64,000 bases of DNA from sequence record PZ386959.1. One strand, 5' to 3'. The position numbers were made by a program, and so were the translations under genes. Under the pieces are notes generated by a model. That model saw only the letters and a list, made by a program, of their open reading frames with translations. It searched no databases and was not told where the DNA came from. Below, in pieces: positions 3,930 through 58,573 of this stretch (its first letter is position 1; each line of letters begins with the position of its first letter). Source of the DNA: a phage.

Positions 3930-5276
3930 ATGAGTTCGAATATCTTCAGACTTGCTGATAGATTATTCAACCAACCTTTACTAGCCACTGAATCATTAGC
4001 TCACTCAGCAGCAACTTATGTGAATAACAGATTGCTGGGTGATGTCCAAGCAGCAGTAAACTTTGATAAACCCAAAGGTGAAGCAAGAAGTCTTTTAAAA
4101 GTAAAAGATGACATTGCTATTATCCCTATTATGGGTGGTTTAACCCATCGTATGACATTCATTGATGCAATGTGCACAGGTGGTTTAAGCTCTTATGAAG
4201 GTTTACGTAGAGGCTTTGACGAAGCTTTAGCAGATGAGTCAATTAAGACTATTGTTCTGCATATTGATTCTGGTGGTGGTGAAGCTTCAGGTTGCTTTGA
4301 ATTAGCACGTCACATTATGGCTTCAAGAGGCCAAAAGAAAATTATTGCTTATGTAGATGAGTTCGCTTGTTCCGCTGCATATGCTCTTGCATCTTCTGCT
4401 GAAGAAATTATTGCATCACCAGATGCAGATGTTGGTTCTATTGGTGTAATCATGGTTCATCAGGAATTAACTAAGGCATTTGAAAAGAATGGCGTAACAA
4501 TTAACGTCATCAAAGCTGGTGAGTTTAAAGGTATGGGTTCACCATTCCAAGCACTCTCAGAAGAAAGCAAAGAAAGACTTCAAAAGAGGATTAATGATAC
4601 CTACGCAACCTTTACAGGTTTTGTAGCCGAATCTCGTAATCTCTCTGAAGAAGCTGTAAAGAATACTGAGGCGAATGTTTATTCTGCTCAGGAAGCTCTT
4701 GAACTTGGTTTAATTAACTCAATCATGTCTCAAGATGATTTCTTAAATTACTTACAAGGTTCTGAAGAGGCTCCTGTAAGTTTAAACGTTAACAATTCAG
4801 GTGAAGAAATGACTGAACAAGAAAAGCAAGAACTAGAAGCTTTGCGTCTTCAGGTTGCTCAAATGAAAGCTAAAGAACAGGAAGCTGCTTTGTCAGATTT
4901 GACTAATAAGATTTCTGCTTCTGCTGAAGCTTTTGGATTTGATGCAAAAGAAGCTGCAACGACTATTTTAGGTGCTGGTCTTGATAACCCTCTGAGTGTT
5001 CTGTTTATGAATGCTATGGAAGGTGCTAACCAGAAACTTAATGAAACTATCGCGTCCCACGCTTCTGCAATGGAAGAAAAAGAATCAGAAATTACCAAGC
5101 TGAAAGAAACTGCTGGTGCTGTTCTTGAACATTCCAACGCTATGGAAGAAATGGGTAATGACGGCGAAGCTGATTTGGTTGAAGAAGAAAAAGAACCAGC
5201 TAAGAATGCTTCCGAAGACACCGCTGAACAACGCAAACTGGCTCTCCAGAATGCTCTAAAATCTCTTATTAAATAA
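3930..5276 (+). CDS. prohead protease of S49/SppA type with a C-terminal coiled-coil scaffold-like domain
   Basis: Segment HIDSGGGEASG...DEFACSAAYALASSAEEIIASPDADVGSIGV resembles the S49 peptidase core; the C-terminal third is Ala/Glu/Lys-rich and predicted coiled coil; sits between portal and capsid genes as lambda gpC/Nu3 does. Confidence 0.65.
   Translation: MSSNIFRLADRLFNQPLLATESLAHSAATYVNNRLLGDVQAAVNFDKPKGEARSLLKVKDDIAIIPIMGGLTHRMTFIDAMCTGGLSSYEGLRRGFDEALADESIKTIVLHIDSGGGEASGCFELARHIMASRGQKKIIAYVDEFACSAAYALASSAEEIIASPDADVGSIGVIMVHQELTKAFEKNGVTINVIKAGEFKGMGSPFQALSEESKERLQKRINDTYATFTGFVAESRNLSEEAVKNTEANVYSAQEALELGLINSIMSQDDFLNYLQGSEEAPVSLNVNNSGEEMTEQEKQELEALRLQVAQMKAKEQEAALSDLTNKISASAEAFGFDAKEAATTILGAGLDNPLSVLFMNAMEGANQKLNETIASHASAMEEKESEITKLKETAGAVLEHSNAMEEMGNDGEADLVEEEKEPAKNASEDTAEQRKLALQNALKSLIK

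Positions 5277-11257: not shown

Positions 11258-11258
<1 letters not shown>
11019..11258 (+). CDS. tail assembly chaperone frameshift extension (gpGT-like)
   Basis: Its reading frame is -1 relative to the upstream chaperone and is open from 10938; no convincing Shine-Dalgarno before its own ATG; its stop overlaps the tape measure ATG. Confidence 0.45.
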
Positions 11259-19277
<8,019 letters not shown>

Positions 19278-26683: not shown

Positions 26684-27067
26684 TCAAATACCTGTGCAGC
26701 TTCTGTTTTCTAAGAAATACTCCACACCATACATAGCTTTTTGCATCAAATCTTCTTTAAACTGGATACGATGATTGAGCATAGCCTGTACATCAATATC
26801 ATCAGGGTGCTTCTCTTTAATATTTGCAGATTGCAGGAAATACTCTGCAAGAACACGATACTGATAGTCAGTTACCTTATCAGTCATCTCTGTTAAAGAC
26901 TCTTCAGAGATTGGTTTAAGTAGTTCACCTTTAGATAGGGCAACACCTTTAACAATCTGGCAAGTGTCTTCTGGAACACCTGATAAGTCCACATTTGGAA
27001 GTTCTGTTGCATTGACTGGTAAATTCATTGCCATAACCATTGCAGCAGCTAATAAAATCTTTTTCAT
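26684..27067 (-). CDS. secreted (signal-peptide) protein of unknown function
   Basis: N-terminus MKKILLAAAMVMAMNLPVNA looks like a Sec signal peptide with an AxA-type cleavage site; first gene downstream of intergenic module R1. Confidence 0.45.
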   Translation of the reverse strand: MKKILLAAAMVMAMNLPVNATELPNVDLSGVPEDTCQIVKGVALSKGELLKPISEESLTEMTDKVTDYQYRVLAEYFLQSANIKEKHPDDIDVQAMLNHRIQFKEDLMQKAMYGVEYFLENRSCTGI

Positions 27068-27111: not shown

Positions 27112-27140
27112 AAAATAAGCTATAACACCTGACTTGTCAA
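27112..27140 (-). promoter_or_regulatory. candidate minus-strand promoter for the secreted-protein gene
   Basis: On the minus strand: -35 TTGACA (plus 27140-27135), 17-nt spacer, -10 TATTTT (plus 27117-27112), about 45 nt upstream of the ATG at 27067; lies in the leader segment shared by modules R1 and R2. Confidence 0.3.
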
Positions 27141-27242
27141 CAGATTTTATAGCTTATTTGGCAGATTTTTTATAAGGCTACTGCCATCCTTCCATACCAC
27201 ACCTCACCCAACCATACCATGCCTTACCAGACCGCACCTTGC

Positions 27243-27316
27243 CTTATTAAAAGACCCTGTTTAAAGACCTTTTAAAAAGGTGAGTCTCATTTTAATGTAG
27301 CTGAGACTAACTACCC
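27243..27316. repeat. conserved 74-nt box, copy 1 (contains hairpin AGTCTCA / TGAGACT)
   Basis: CTTATTAAAAGACCCTGTTTAAAGACCTTTTAAAAAGGTGAGTCTCATTTTAATGTAGCTGAGACTAACTACCC; 73/74 identical to copy 2; a degenerate third copy lies at 27519-27553. Confidence 0.85.
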
Positions 27317-27389
27317 ATACATTACCTCGCCTAACCGCACCCGAATCAACCGGACTAGACCAAGCCCCACTGCACATCACCGAACCAAG

Positions 27390-27428
27390 CATCACTTAAA
27401 AATCCTCTTAGAAGACTCTTAAGTGATG
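27390..27428. repeat. long hairpin, copy 1 (10-bp stem, 19-nt loop)
   Basis: CATCACTTAA-aaatcctcttagaagactc-TTAAGTGATG; the two arms are perfect reverse complements. Confidence 0.8.
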
Positions 27429-27541
27429 TAATCGAATTTTTATGTAGCTCCGATTAACTACCCGCACTTTACCAAACCTCACCCTACCCTACCAGACCTT
27501 ACCTAACCGCGCCGTACCTCATTAAAAGACCCTCTTAAAGA

Positions 27542-27569
27542 CCTTTTAAAAAGGAGCCTCCGAAGAGGC
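27542..27569 (-). terminator. minus-strand terminator after the two-gene cassette
   Basis: Plus-strand GGAGCCTCCGAAGAGGCT hairpin (stem AGCCTC/GAGGCT, loop CGAA) preceded by CCTTTTAAAAAGG, i.e. hairpin plus U-tract on the minus transcript, 13 nt after the stop of 27582-28022. Confidence 0.5.
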
Positions 27570-27581
27570 TACCTAGTCAAC

Positions 27582-28022
27582 TTAGAAAGGTTTTCTACGT
27601 TGCTTGTTAATGTTAGCTTTCATAGCAGCTAAATGGTTTTGCTGTTCAATTAGTCGTGAACGTTCTTGATGACTAAGTGCCATAGTGTTCACATTCTCAA
27701 TCGCTTGAGTGGCTTGCTTTAAAGCACGACCAATCTTACCAGACATTTTACGTTTTGCAATAGTTGCTTGATGCTTAGGTTCAACCACACGATAACCAAC
27801 ACCCATTGAAGCAACCAGATAAATCTTCTCTTCTTTAAGAAGCTTCTCAATAAACTTCTCAAGTCGGTTTAGACGTGTAAGCGCATAAGCCTTCATTTCA
27901 TCTTCGTACTTAACAATGTCACCTTGATAAGTTGGTTTCACAATACCTAAGAAGGTATCCATCTCAGAATGTGATACAGTGTCACCGTAACTAAACTTTG
28001 CTGCTAATGCTTTTGTATTCAT
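27582..28022 (-). CDS. hypothetical protein (cassette gene 2)
   Basis: 146-aa ORF with a basic, helical C-terminal half; its stop is followed on the minus strand by a hairpin/U-tract terminator. Confidence 0.4.
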   Translation of the reverse strand: MNTKALAAKFSYGDTVSHSEMDTFLGIVKPTYQGDIVKYEDEMKAYALTRLNRLEKFIEKLLKEEKIYLVASMGVGYRVVEPKHQATIAKRKMSGKIGRALKQATQAIENVNTMALSHQERSRLIEQQNHLAAMKANINKQRRKPF

Positions 28023-28024
28023 AA

Positions 28025-28630
<606 letters not shown>

Positions 28631-28710
28631 TTAGTTGATTGTTAAGTTGTTTGTAAAGAACCCTCAACAGAAGACTCTTTAGAAACTTGGTAGATTTTTA
28701 ACGTGGCTAC

Positions 28711-28900
28711 TACCATCCACCCATACCAGACCAGACCAAGCCAAGCCCAACACTACCGAACCGGACACGACCAGACCTTATTAAAAGACCCTGTTTAAAG
28801 ACCTTTTAAAAAGGTAAGTCTCATTTTAATGTAGCTGAGACTAACTACCCACACCAAACCATAGCATACATCGCATTACCGGACAGAACCATACTTTACC
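28711..28900. repeat. intergenic module R2: two arrays of 5-nt-phased NNACC pentamers (D 28711-28777, E 28841-28900)
   Basis: CC dinucleotides recur at 5-nt (occasionally 10-nt) spacing, for example 28722, 28727, 28732, 28737, 28742, 28747 and 28850, 28855, 28860, 28880, 28890, 28900. Confidence 0.8.
28777..28850. repeat. conserved 74-nt box, copy 2
   Basis: Identical to copy 1 except one G to A change (GGTGAGTC versus GGTAAGTC). Confidence 0.85.
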
Positions 28901-28903
28901 AAA

Positions 28904-28942
28904 CATCACTTAAAAACCCTCTTAAAAGACTCTTAAGTGATG
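28904..28942. repeat. long hairpin, copy 2 (10-bp stem, 19-nt loop)
   Basis: CATCACTTAA-aaaccctcttaaaagactc-TTAAGTGATG; stem identical to copy 1, loop differs at 2 positions. Confidence 0.8.
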
Positions 28943-29157
28943 CTGGTGAGTACCTGTTGGTTTATGCTGCTCAGTATACTCACCAAATTTTCTATGTCAA
29001 CAACTTTTTATAAAAAAGTTCTGATAGCTATATGTGTCACGAAACAAAAGATTGTAAACAAGACACCCATTGCAAAAGATGTGTCCAAAAGCTTACTTGC
29101 AACGTATGACAATACAAAGACAACCAGTATAAACAGAATGACTGTACTGAGCATAGT

Positions 29158-56206: not shown

Positions 56207-58573
56207 ATGCGCATGGTAAACGACCACGCAGAAGTGATTAAGAGTTCAACTTCTTTAGAGACGTCTCAAGCACAGATTACAATGACACCTGAAATGTTCA
56301 GCCTTTTGAGTTCCGGTGTATACACATTTAAAGAAAGGGCAGTGATTCGTGAACTGTCATGTAACGCAGTAGATGCTCAAAAAGAAGCTGGAAAAGAGAA
56401 CATCCCGTTCCATGTGCATTTACCTACTCGATTTGAGCCTTACTTTGAAGTCCGTGACTTTGGAACTGGTTTAACCCATGACAAAGTAATGAGTTTGTAT
56501 CTGAACTATGGGGCTTCTACGAAGAATGACTCTAATGACTACATTGGTGCAATGGGTATCGGCTCAAAGTCACCGTTTGCGATTGCTCAGTCATTCACAG
56601 TGTCTAGCTATGTTGATGGTGTTGTTAATAAGTACTCTGTTTACCTTGAGAATGGTATTCCTCAAGTAACTAAGCTTACTACTAACCAAACAAATGAACC
56701 TAATGGTTTAGCTGTACGTGTGGCAGTTGCTGACCACCGTATTTCAAAGTTCTTTGAAGAGGCTGGTAATGTATACTCATACTTTGCTGTAAAACCAGAG
56801 AGTAATGTGGAGTATAATGATATATTAGCAGATATGGATGTGATTGCTCGTGAAGAAGGTGTCTATGATGCCATGACTCATAAGCATAGCTGGCGTTCAA
56901 GCAGCAATAGAACAGAGTTTAACGTGGTTATGGGTAATATTGCCTACCCAGTTAATATGGAGGCATTACTTGGTGATGATTTCTTCAAAGTATTACCAGA
57001 ATTTTTCCGCAGGAGCATAGACCTTGTAAACATCTACATGCCTATTGGTTCAGTTGCTATTGCAGCTTCTCGTGAAGCATTGCAGATGAATGACACGACA
57101 AAAAATGTTATCATCGAGGCTACTAAAAAGATAACTGAAGCAATTACAAAGGATGTTATCAAGAAAGTTAATAGTCAACCTACACTCATGGATGCTGCAC
57201 AGGCTTATGCTGAGTTACGCTTGAACTCACGAGAGATGTTTAATGCTGTGTGTCCAAAGCTAGAGTGGGGAGGCGTTAAGCTTGATTCTCTGGAAGAAGA
57301 ATTACTAAACATTCGTCGTGGGATTATCTACGCAGAAGACGGCTCAGTCATTTATGAACGTGACGGCAAAGGCAATATTAAGGTTGACAGCAAAGGAAAC
57401 AATATCCCTAAAGTTGACTACCTATACAATCCAGTTGCTTATGTCAAGTTCAACTCTTTAGAGAGTAAGATTCGTGCAACAGCACTTTCCTACACTCAAG
57501 AGGCAAGTATGTTCAATATCTTTGGTGCAATGCGTAAAAGTCAAATTGAACAGTTTTTGTTTGTTATTAATGACCGTCGCAATAAAAACGGTACTGAGAA
57601 GACTGTAGGCCGCAATCAGATTCTGCGTGGTGCATGTCGAGACTACGCCAGTGAGTCCAGTCTGTTTCACAGATATAATGGCATTGTGTTTGTATTCTCG
57701 ACTGAAAAAGAGTTAGATGATTTAATCAATCTACACAAACTTGATAAAAGCTTGTTAAAGATTGTGAAAATGTCTGATAAGGAGCACCATTACCAGCGTA
57801 AAGAAGCTGTAAGGGGTGTTGTAAAACTCTGGAAAGCTGTTCCAGCAGAAGGTGTAGCTTCCTATAAAGAGGTTTCAGAGGACTTTGATACAATTGAAGA
57901 GCCTCAGCTTTACATTAAGGCAGTTGGCGACACAGTTGATGGCGAATGTTTTTGCTCATCTCCAGAAGATGTAGCCAAGTCAGTTGCTAATGTTACAGGG
58001 AAGACAGTCTATGTTTTCCGAAAAGCAAATTGGAAAAAGATACCAGAAGACTGGATTGAAGTAGATGAGAAACTCTTGAACGACAGCTTAACTGATGTTC
58101 ATTGGATTAATCATAACAGATATATGACACGCATCTACATGAATGGTGTTCTTGACCTGACAAGCAGTTGGATTATTGCCAGAAACTTTACGTTCAATAA
58201 CAGGAAGATTTCTCGTGGCTATTGCTATTCACGGGATACAAACAAAACTATCTTCCTAGAAGGAAATGAAGATGCTGTAGAGGCAATGTTTGGTAAAATC
58301 CAATACGTTGCTGCACCATTTGCATACACTTATACTATTAGTGTATTGAAAACTTTGAAAGACTGTCTTGACAATGATACAAAGCTTTACAAGAAAATTA
58401 AGAAAGCTGGTGACCGTATGGTCATTAAGGTGACAAACTACCTTTCAAAAAGAAAACAAGAAAACTTCTTGCTTTCTCATTTGGATTGGAATAAAGTGTC
58501 ACCCATCGAAGTGAGTAAGTTCTTAGGCTTTGATGTAAAATGTGTTCCAGAAGGGACTACAATTTACGATTAA
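56207..58573 (+). CDS. rIIA: rIIA-like protein (GHKL/Bergerat ATPase fold N-terminus)
   Basis: RAVIRELSCNAVDA, VRDFGTGLT and SNDYIGAMGIGSKSPF match the T4 rIIA N-terminal blocks as I recall them (RAVVRELITNMIDA, CRDFGPG, SNDFIGGFGLGSKSPF). Confidence 0.8.
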   Translation: MRMVNDHAEVIKSSTSLETSQAQITMTPEMFSLLSSGVYTFKERAVIRELSCNAVDAQKEAGKENIPFHVHLPTRFEPYFEVRDFGTGLTHDKVMSLYLNYGASTKNDSNDYIGAMGIGSKSPFAIAQSFTVSSYVDGVVNKYSVYLENGIPQVTKLTTNQTNEPNGLAVRVAVADHRISKFFEEAGNVYSYFAVKPESNVEYNDILADMDVIAREEGVYDAMTHKHSWRSSSNRTEFNVVMGNIAYPVNMEALLGDDFFKVLPEFFRRSIDLVNIYMPIGSVAIAASREALQMNDTTKNVIIEATKKITEAITKDVIKKVNSQPTLMDAAQAYAELRLNSREMFNAVCPKLEWGGVKLDSLEEELLNIRRGIIYAEDGSVIYERDGKGNIKVDSKGNNIPKVDYLYNPVAYVKFNSLESKIRATALSYTQEASMFNIFGAMRKSQIEQFLFVINDRRNKNGTEKTVGRNQILRGACRDYASESSLFHRYNGIVFVFSTEKELDDLINLHKLDKSLLKIVKMSDKEHHYQRKEAVRGVVKLWKAVPAEGVASYKEVSEDFDTIEEPQLYIKAVGDTVDGECFCSSPEDVAKSVANVTGKTVYVFRKANWKKIPEDWIEVDEKLLNDSLTDVHWINHNRYMTRIYMNGVLDLTSSWIIARNFTFNNRKISRGYCYSRDTNKTIFLEGNEDAVEAMFGKIQYVAAPFAYTYTISVLKTLKDCLDNDTKLYKKIKKAGDRMVIKVTNYLSKRKQENFLLSHLDWNKVSPIEVSKFLGFDVKCVPEGTTIYD

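Follow-up and report, generated by a model that had tools for sequence, protein, structure and literature searches.

Phased GGYNN arrays on both sides of a two-gene cassette in a Felixounavirus genome: very probable guide-RNA genes of a type II VIPR system directed at an Escherichia coli satellite

What is the function of the two repeat-filled regions that flank a small gene cassette in the phage sequence PZ386959.1? In the stretch of 64,000 nucleotides (nt) analysed here (the window), region R2 is the 545-nt intergenic region that separates the DNA ligase gene from a cassette of two genes (28612..28025 and 28022..27582), and region R1 is the 514-nt region downstream of this cassette. An earlier reading of the letters alone (the original prediction) had described the two regions as copies of one module, in which arrays of phased pentamers alternate with a box, a long hairpin and a leader segment. 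The stretch 28689-28942 of R2 very probably holds the genes for vrRNAs E and D, guide RNAs that belong to the SUSP1 clade of type II VIPR (Viral Interference Programmable Repeat) systems, with three further guide RNAs (vrRNAs C, B and A) downstream in R1. The feature is real and functional, and is a member of an already described system. With these vrRNAs, the phage most likely silences a satellite and so escapes being parasitised by it.

VIPR was reported in April-June 2026 as a form of RNA-guided DNA recognition, proposed to be older than CRISPR (clustered regularly interspaced short palindromic repeats), in two bioRxiv preprints (10.64898/2026.04.26.720920 and 10.64898/2026.04.26.720927). 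The discovery preprint describes the phage-encoded protein Vipr as an ancestral RAMP protein with an accessory vap gene, and the vrRNAs as RNAs of about 100 nt that consist of 9-16 YNNGG repeats and a structured tail. Targets follow a 1-nt-skip rule (NNxNNx) with the skipped bases at codon wobble positions, no protospacer adjacent motif (PAM) is involved, and the result is programmable transcriptional repression. The evidence for phage SUSP1 comprises small-RNA sequencing, a pull-down, and GFP and lambda assays, and SUSP1 vap1 increases protection. Clade membership is set at >90% identity to SUSP1 Vipr; SUSP1 itself has its units arranged as 1+3, and targets were given for 20 of the 41 clade vrRNAs, 18 of these 20 assignable guides pointing to an E. 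coli satellite phage. According to the structural preprint, one protomer binds each repeat, named residues sequester G1, G2 and Y3, and N4 N5 are exposed; an R-loop triplex is formed on the target, and engagement starts near the 3' pseudoknot.

The locus is linked to this system by the protein that the first gene of the cassette encodes, which is 98% identical over its full 195 residues to PDB entry 36pp ('SUSP1 Vipr protein', E 6e-128), the sole strong match in a profile search against solved structures. All 13 of the named contact residues that were checked are kept, including H17, K33, R39, K82, R138, D177, W178 and R179. An AlphaFold (AF2) model of the protein has a pLDDT (predicted local distance difference test score) of 94.7, and its nearest solved folds in an earlier PDB copy are the Csm3/Cas7 and Cas6 RAMPs. 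The second gene, vap, shares 99% identity with its positional counterpart in phage SUSP2. Searches of Pfam and PHROGs gave no function for either gene; vap belongs to phrog_5926 and has no Pfam match. More than 500 homologues of Vipr, lacking a Pfam domain or an informative name, occur in phages and prophages of Proteobacteria and Actinobacteria. The C-terminal motif G-x-G-[DE]-W-R-P...G-x-F of Vipr is also found in array-adjoining proteins elsewhere. In IMG/VR, at least 120 contigs contain seven GGTNN units in a row; about half of those listed carry degenerate, non-microsatellite arrays, many with tandem units and short conserved punctuation. Among the matches listed, a motif protein of about 180-210 residues adjoins degenerate GGYNN arrays in 34 of 52 unrelated viral contigs. 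Taken with the results below, the window contains a Vipr of >90% identity, a vap gene, GGYNN arrays, pseudoknot tails and 1-nt-skip targets, and has no self-target, as described for type II VIPR of the SUSP1 clade.

The sense strand of the arrays is the minus strand, on which the repeat unit reads GGYNN (ACC on the plus strand). Array D is composed of the pentamers GGTCT GGTCG TGTCC GGTTC GGTAG TGTTG GGCTT GGCTT GGTCT GGTCT GGTAT; in all 11, the second base is G and the third a pyrimidine. Array E is composed of GGTAA AGTAT GGTTC TGTCC GGTAA TGCGA TGTAT GCTAT GGTTT GGTGT; nine of these 10 pentamers are in register, and position 1 is more degenerate than in array D. The observed in-phase count of D and E is 9, versus a maximum of 7-8 in composition-preserving shuffles of each array (p<=2e-4). 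The original prediction had proposed a 5-nt ACC phasing of these arrays: the periodicity stands, and the strand does not, as it is GGY on the minus strand that is meaningful. A scan of the whole window finds five GGYNN arrays, all on the minus strand and all within R1 and R2.

The repeat profile becomes clearer in a comparative set of 29 IMG/VR loci, fetched via the conserved box, and several GenBank records. In the 757 pentamers that 63 distinct arrays of related phages provide, G makes up 81%, T 12% and A 7% of position 1, and C is never found there; position 2 is G in 96%; position 3 is T in 87% or C in 12%; and positions 4-5 are close to random. The NN content is quite different between phages that are 93-98% identical in their flanking DNA, and homogeneous runs such as GGTCA x4 occur in related arrays. 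Array D, for its part, is found nearly unchanged in another phage (L028), with one NN base different. Array length is exactly 5n after one type of 5' element (BOX) and 5n+3 after the other (LH, for long hairpin) in 61 of the 63 arrays. Phase and GGY are strongly conserved across the arrays, and NN is free or diversifying: GGY is constant because the Vipr protein binds it, and NN is variable because it carries the target specificity.

Pairwise alignment of the two regions, as suggested by the original prediction, places R2 colinearly on the 3' two thirds of R1. Between the two regions, the long hairpins differ at 2 of 39 positions and the 74-nt boxes (tail plus spacer) at 1-2 positions, while inside the arrays only the GG-T (GG-Y) columns align; near-identical elements next to divergent pentamers are thus exactly what the alignment shows, and the periodicity of R2 is statistically supported. 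On the sense strand, R2 runs from a promoter through LH, array E, a tail, a U-run with BOX, array D and a second tail to the 5' untranslated region of the two genes, and R1 from a terminator through BOX, array C, tail, LH, array B, tail, BOX, array A and tail to the promoter of the next gene. These are five units of one kind, in each of which LH or BOX as the 5' element precedes a variable array and a tail. The number of units is 2 upstream plus 3 downstream of the operon, and 2+2 in SUSP2. The original prediction had argued for a repeated functional unit rather than chance low complexity, and the units indeed correspond to vrRNA genes on either side of the vipr-vap operon. Its suggestion of different constraints on arrays and boxes is also confirmed, since GGY is held and NN varies, and since the boxes are a structured 3' tail and the spacers between units. 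In short, its structural reasoning is supported as sound, although it named no function and used the wrong strand.

Several observations indicate that the arrays act as RNA and not as DNA. A 34-nt tail follows each of the five arrays, and these tails align without gaps. Among 13 distinct tails, a 7-bp hairpin and a 4-bp pseudoknot, in which the 5' flank pairs with the loop, have 93.7% of their cells paired, and 9 of the 11 pairs have changed on both sides, a covariation score reached by none of 500 shuffles. When the partner is slid by one column, the pairing falls to 31-38%. Pseudoknot variants among the tails are GUAG/CUAC, GUGG/CCAC and AAGG/CCUU. When reverse-complemented, the leader segment of the original prediction, GGCTACYRCCATCC, gives the 5' half of the second tail type, and the Y/R difference in GGCTACYRCCATCC is one half of a compensatory pair, GGCAG/CUGCC in R1 versus GGUAG/CUACC in R2. 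The 39-nt LH forms a perfect 18-bp stem only as sense RNA, because it contains several G.U pairs. The fold energies of its two copies are -15.9 and -21.1 kcal/mol in sense versus -8.6 and -9.9 in antisense orientation; the copy at 28904..28942 has -15.9 kcal/mol (z -6.4) in sense and -8.6 in antisense. LH looks like a candidate RNase III-type processing site. BOX is present only in R1 and R2 within the window, is conserved in related loci, and is possibly a determinant of 3' ends or of 5' ends. Neither LH nor BOX is mentioned in the main text of the discovery preprint under the terms tried; the words 'RNase', 'terminator' and 'orphan' are absent, and 'processing' is used there for sonication time only. 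The two elements are modest, testable leads on guide biogenesis.

Evidence for a function in trans comes from the guides themselves. Guides were scored by the number of NN matches under the 1-nt-skip rule in about 124 kb from 11 satellite copies, and compared with 1000 order-shuffled guides. Guide E matches 20/20 NN (100%) inside the coding sequence of a 236-residue satellite gene (0/1000 shuffles), and its predicted target site is AAgATgTCaCCaAAgGAaATcATcTTtGT. Guide C matches 21/22 NN (95%) at 50-80 nt upstream of the same gene (0/1000), and guide A 18/20 NN (90%) at about 120-150 nt upstream of it in the satellites L167 and L168 (4/1000). Guide B matches 23/28 NN (82%) in the satellite recombinase gene of locus L155 (0/1000), and guide D, with 18/22 NN (82%) in the satellite gene for a large serine recombinase (9/1000), is marginal. 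An equal amount of chromosomal flank DNA gave 15-18 matches only, and skip lengths of 0, 2 and 3 gave background scores. For E and D the skipped bases are codon position 3. Self-targets in the window reach 64-75% at best, and none reaches 80%. The same code applies beyond this phage: 24 of the 63 related guides score at least 80% on satellites, versus 6 of 315 shuffled guides, with sites spread over most satellite genes. Judged by its sequence, guide E is convincing: its predicted natural target is perfect, even though half of the repeats in array E start with a non-canonical base.

When IMG/VR was scanned with the nine tail-proximal NN of guide E, three contigs were found, all of them with 20/20 matches over the full guide. 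On two of these, guide C has a site beside that of guide E, with 21/22 (L153) and 17/22 (L155) matches. A 20/20 match of guide E lies in an unrelated metagenomic viral contig (L154 3504-3532), in which most skipped bases differ from those of the E. coli satellite site and in which no similarity to the satellites was detectable; this match could be chance in an AT-rich genome, or the contig could be a distant homologue. Partial matches of other guides were rejected, as they did not extend: a 9-NN tail-proximal match of D (L152, 19/22, at chance level), a 10-NN match of D in the JGI metagenomes (L164) and a 9-NN match of A (L163). A further observation concerns the satellite variants. L167 and L168 match guide A (L168 also guide C) but not guide E, and L153, L155 and L157 match guide E perfectly (sites compared: L168 8270-8298 and 8331-8362 versus L157 9350-9378). 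Different guides for different satellite variants would be the pattern expected from escape of satellites from phages and counter-escape.

The L153 and L155 contigs are fragments of E. coli proviruses, and the same sequence is found in complete genomes within an island of about 11-12 kb (copies in L158, 3100-14900, E. coli H22; in L156, 15300-27000; and in L160, L167 and L168). This island encodes a large serine recombinase, a Dam-type methyltransferase or a small recombinase, a helix-turn-helix protein, small genes, the 236-residue protein, a tape-measure protein and a baseplate protein. It has no capsid or terminase genes, and is often interrupted by insertion sequences. Three chromosomal insertion sites were found (yciI-tonB, a DUF72 gene and ymdF), and 169 of 5,426 complete E. 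coli genomes carry the recombinase gene of the island. Strains with the satellite include H22, FDAARGOS_1254 and FORC_043. The tape-measure and baseplate proteins are homologous to the products of window genes 11258-12826 and 13507-14274 (34-38% and 63% amino-acid identity), and this homology is the likely basis on which the satellite would exploit Felix O1-like phages; it fits a satellite with helpers of this kind. No GGYNN arrays were found in the fetched satellite copies, as the only two array calls are in flanking chromosomal DNA, and when R1 was compared by BLAST with the 5,426 E. coli genomes, no chromosome showed vrRNA-like tails or boxes.

The mechanism established for SUSP1 can be carried over to the present phage via the 98% identity of Vipr. 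Each vrRNA would be transcribed from the minus strand as 10-14 GGYNN repeats followed by the 34-nt tail, with its hairpin capped by the 4-bp pseudoknot. One Vipr protomer would bind each repeat, with G1, G2 and Y3 flipped out and sequestered and N4 N5 exposed, so that the Vipr filament would display the NN dinucleotides as a gapped guide. This guide would pair with double-stranded DNA as NNxNNx..., every third base being skipped, starting at the tail-proximal end, and the resulting R-loop triplex would then block transcription. The predicted targets are a site within the 236-residue gene for E, sites upstream of this gene for C and A, and sites in the recombinase gene for B and, weakly, for D.

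Other explanations of the arrays have to be weighed against this one. The arrays might form a cis-regulatory leader on which an oligomeric RNA-binding protein occupies GGU triplets every 5 nt, as TRAP does, with no target in trans. R2 does lie between a strong promoter and the vipr start codon, the (G/U)G(Y)NN profile resembles a TRAP site, and the protein involved does bind one repeat per subunit. However, three of the five units lie beyond the operon terminator, the NN positions match satellite genes far above shuffles and at a skip of 1 nt only, and DNA targeting in trans has been published, so that a pure leader is very unlikely. Still less probable, to the point that we give it almost no weight, is a role at the level of DNA, with a G-rich non-template strand that forms an R-loop or G-quadruplex at a replication origin, or with the arrays as a dense field of primase or recombination sites. 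Such a role would suit the replication module beside the ligase gene and a G-rich transcript with flanking promoters, and the presence or absence of the cassette does suggest recombination at the repeats. G-richness leaves the pyrimidine at position 3, the lack of C at position 1 and the indels in fives unexplained, however, and the hairpins have RNA-specific G.U pairs and compensatory changes, while arrays accompany a RAMP protein in unrelated phages. More specific proposals were rejected since they fail to explain the GGY profile plus the RAMP association: an R-loop origin, a two-tier G-quadruplex and T7-type primase sites (GGGTC/TGGTC); Chi-like or RecA-preferred GT-rich hotspots and decoys for EcoP1I (AGACC) or BREX (GGTAAG); and TRAP-like ring binding, boxA-like nut sites and rut sites on the antisense RNA.

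It is equally hard to credit that only the boxes are functional and that the arrays are neutral, degenerate pentanucleotide microsatellites generated by slippage. Array lengths of close relatives differ by multiples of 5, short homogeneous runs occur, and true microsatellites exist in viral contigs; yet slippage homogenises, whereas most pentamers within an array differ, and NN is near random while GGY is kept over 63 arrays. Moreover, Tandem Repeats Finder calls none of the arrays, and the guides match satellite genes. The original prediction had offered array turnover by slippage as one cause of the divergence. As a minor contributor this holds, given the steps of 5 in 61 of 63 arrays and the runs; as the main source it is unlikely, because slippage cannot yield NN that match specific satellite genes.

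A less radical alternative accepts the locus as VIPR and takes guide D, and possibly guide E, to be decaying or obsolete and no longer silencing. We regard this as rather unlikely, although it deserves more attention than the preceding ones. In its favour, D has 18/22 matches with mismatches at the ends, no better variant in 169 genomes and no exact match in IMG/VR or the metagenomes, E has a degenerate G1 and a broken repeat, and the preprint gives targets for only 20 of 41 clade vrRNAs. On the other side, D keeps G2 and Y3 in 11 of 11 repeats and has an intact tail, a near-identical D exists in L028, E matches 20/20, and the D site lies in wobble register in a recombinase gene that is also matched by B. 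Looked at in detail, the D site has its central seven NN perfect and mismatches at both ends; no better-matching variant of it (idealised D target in recombinase context) exists among the 169 genomes with the recombinase gene, and the full-length D pattern has no exact target in IMG/VR or the JGI metagenomes.

Several points do weigh against the assignment of the five units to a satellite-silencing VIPR system. The mismatches of guide D include the tail-proximal end, where engagement begins according to the structural preprint; guide D may be outdated, or the searched data may not include its target. Half of the repeats in array E have a non-canonical first base, and the repeat GCTAT breaks G2, and because of these degenerate G1 positions and GCTAT the loading efficiency of E is uncertain. 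The guide search covers 11 satellite copies, a sample of the E. coli pangenome. Expression, processing and loading of the five vrRNAs are predicted from the DNA, the roles of LH and BOX and the 5' ends of the vrRNAs are putative, and the mechanism is taken from two preprints that are not yet peer reviewed.

Because the locus is near-identical to the published SUSP1 system, its novelty is low and no new principle is added. From sequence alone, the original prediction had rediscovered VIPR guide-RNA genes. The analysis provides an independent replication of the 1-nt-skip code and of satellite targeting, with other data and controls and with the guides of one Felixounavirus. It also provides a target map, in which the sites of two guides lie upstream of the 236-residue satellite gene and that of a third within it, while the other two guides match the satellite integrase.

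An observation beyond the preprints concerns relatives that lack vipr. With tblastn, 118 Ounavirinae records have a Vipr at >=90% identity, versus 259 records that share the region; vipr is missing in roughly half of the Felix O1-like phages sharing it. Loci without the cassette consist of a single region with one or two units between the ligase gene and the next gene. The complete genomes of the Salmonella phages BPS15S6 and FO1a contain no vipr or vap anywhere (tblastn E>0.3). BPS15S6 (MG646670.1; L170 32430-32849) has two units, in the order promoter, LH, array, tail, BOX, array, tail, promoter, which is the product expected from recombination between the two 74-nt tail-plus-BOX repeats. 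FO1a, a strain of the classical typing phage Felix O1, has one degenerate promoter-driven unit (L033 2323-2604; array at 57656-57715 of the record), and its guide has no satellite match. In the cassette-less loci of BPS15S6 and four others, the GGY phase is perfect or near-perfect in most units and the tails are intact; 7 of the 10 guides of these five loci match satellites at 86-100%, as did 0 of 300 shuffles. We tentatively suggest, as a possibility that falls well short of a conclusion, that such orphan guides are functional and are loaded in trans by Vipr from a co-infecting VIPR-positive phage or another element, and that the 74-nt repeats flanking the operon are the recombination substrate by which the vipr-vap cassette enters and leaves genomes. 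The orphan vrRNAs offer a modest, testable lead on cassette gain and loss.

The features of the locus are collected in Table 1. The promoter upstream of vrRNA E should drive vrRNAs E and D as well as the vipr-vap operon. The terminator that closes this operon occupies the place held by a type-1 tail hairpin in other BOX copies.

Table 1. Features of the VIPR locus in the window, listed in sense-strand order
Feature	Position	Strand	Basis or content
Sigma-70-type promoter, TTGACA-16-TATACT	28973..29000	minus	consensus scan 11/12; identical in related phages and SUSP2
LH (long hairpin), directly 5' of vrRNA E	28904..28942	minus	RNA fold
vrRNA E guide, 10 GGYNN	28851..28900	minus	NN = AA AT TC CC AA GA AT AT TT GT
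vrRNA E 3' tail, type 1	28817..28850	minus	pseudoknot GUAG/CUAC and 7-bp hairpin AGUCUCA/UGAGACU; covariation
BOX spacer, 5' flank of vrRNA D	28778..28816	minus	U-run, then two GGTCTTT(T)AA direct repeats
vrRNA D guide, 11 GGYNN	28723..28777	minus	NN = CT CG CC TC AG TG TT TT CT CT AT
vrRNA D 3' tail, type 2	28689..28722	minus	pseudoknot GUGG/CCAC and hairpin GGUAG/CUACC; gapless 34-nt alignment with other tails
vipr, 195 residues	28025..28612	minus	RAMP protein; 98% identical to PDB 36pp
vap accessory gene, 146 residues	27582..28022	minus	directly downstream of vipr
Intrinsic terminator, UUCG loop, closing the vipr-vap operon	27555..27570	minus	terminator scan
BOX before vrRNA C	27519-27555	minus	sequence
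vrRNA C: 11 repeats (27518..27464) and type-1b tail (27463..27430)	27430..27518	minus	
Second LH	27390-27428	minus	directly 5' of vrRNA B
vrRNA B: 14 repeats (27386..27317) and type-1 tail (27316..27283)	27283..27386	minus	
BOX before vrRNA A	27244..27281	minus	sequence
vrRNA A: 10 repeats (27243..27194) and type-2b tail (27193..27160)	27160..27243	minus	
Promoter of the next gene (27067..26684), end of the VIPR locus	27112..27140	minus	consensus scan 10/12

The region matches 259 phage records at 90-98% identity, almost all of them Felixounavirus, i.e. Felix O1-like myophages of Escherichia, Salmonella and Shigella. All genes around R1 and R2 are on the minus strand, and the VIPR locus lies inside a replication and nucleotide-metabolism module, adjoining the ligase gene; its neighbours are the ligase gene and small genes of unknown function. 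Rfam at gathering thresholds and a tRNA scan gave no match in the window, and Tandem Repeats Finder called 0 of the 5 arrays there. A repeat search found no CRISPR-type array (identical direct repeats of 25-40 nt with unique spacers), and no Cas1 or Cas2 is found among the neighbouring genes. A literature search on Felix O1 repeats yielded only unrelated direct repeats and a bare 'DR_4' annotation in phage wV8.

Other array architectures were observed in unrelated viral contigs (L129 3233-4394; L053 2217-3406; L086 1845-2134 and 2950-3304; L043, about 450 bases within 4600-5050). At L129 3233-4394, beside a vipr homologue, 18 tandem units are separated by GGCAG+TTNN only. In another unrelated contig, a 13-unit array beside a vipr homologue has units that end in GGAAT GGTTT, followed by a 14-nt spacer. 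Uninterrupted runs of 53 and 60 pentamers also stand beside vipr homologues, versus the 9-16 repeats reported per single vrRNA. True microsatellites, (GGTTA)n and (GGTCG)n, are present in viral contigs as well, among the matches listed.

Several known systems invite comparison. TRAP, which controls the Bacillus trp leader, is a closed 11-mer ring that binds (G/U)AG repeats and acts in cis on its own operon, and the spacers between these repeats carry no information. VIPR shares with it the binding of one triplet per subunit at a spacing of about 5 nt, with spacer bases that are unconstrained in the RNA. In VIPR, however, it is the 'spacers' that carry the information, and the complex works in trans, on DNA. 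The present locus does not have the features of TRAP-type attenuation, as the triplet is GGY and not (G/U)AG, three units come after the operon, and the protein is a RAMP and does not have the TRAP fold.

Class 1 CRISPR-Cas effector backbones (Cas7/Csm3 filaments on crRNA) are also comparable. Both systems have the RAMP fold with a glycine-rich loop and a thumb, polymerise on a guide RNA with periodic base flipping, and have a structured, conserved handle that caps a variable guide. In CRISPR-Cas the period is 6 nt with one base sequestered, whereas in VIPR it is 5 nt with three bases sequestered and the guide is non-contiguous. VIPR also differs in being encoded by a lytic phage and in lacking Cas1/Cas2 adaptation, a palindromic repeat-spacer array and a PAM.

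The closest relative is the type II VIPR of SUSP1 itself. The two have in common a 98% identical Vipr, the position of vap, GGYNN arrays with hairpin-pseudoknot tails, units that flank the operon, 1-nt-skip targets, an E. coli satellite that has structural genes in common with the phage, and the lack of self-targets. They differ in the phage, a Suspvirus there and a Felixounavirus here, in the unit counts (1+3 versus 2+3) and in their guides, which are phage-specific, and the present locus is known from its sequence.

With respect to biological role, a parallel is Vibrio phage ICP1, which reportedly carries a complete type I-F CRISPR-Cas system against the PLE satellite that degrades DNA and acquires spacers. 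VIPR, according to the reports, represses transcription instead, and it is not known to have any acquisition machinery. In both cases a lytic phage aims its guides at a chromosomal satellite that parasitises it, and the guides vary between near-identical isolates.

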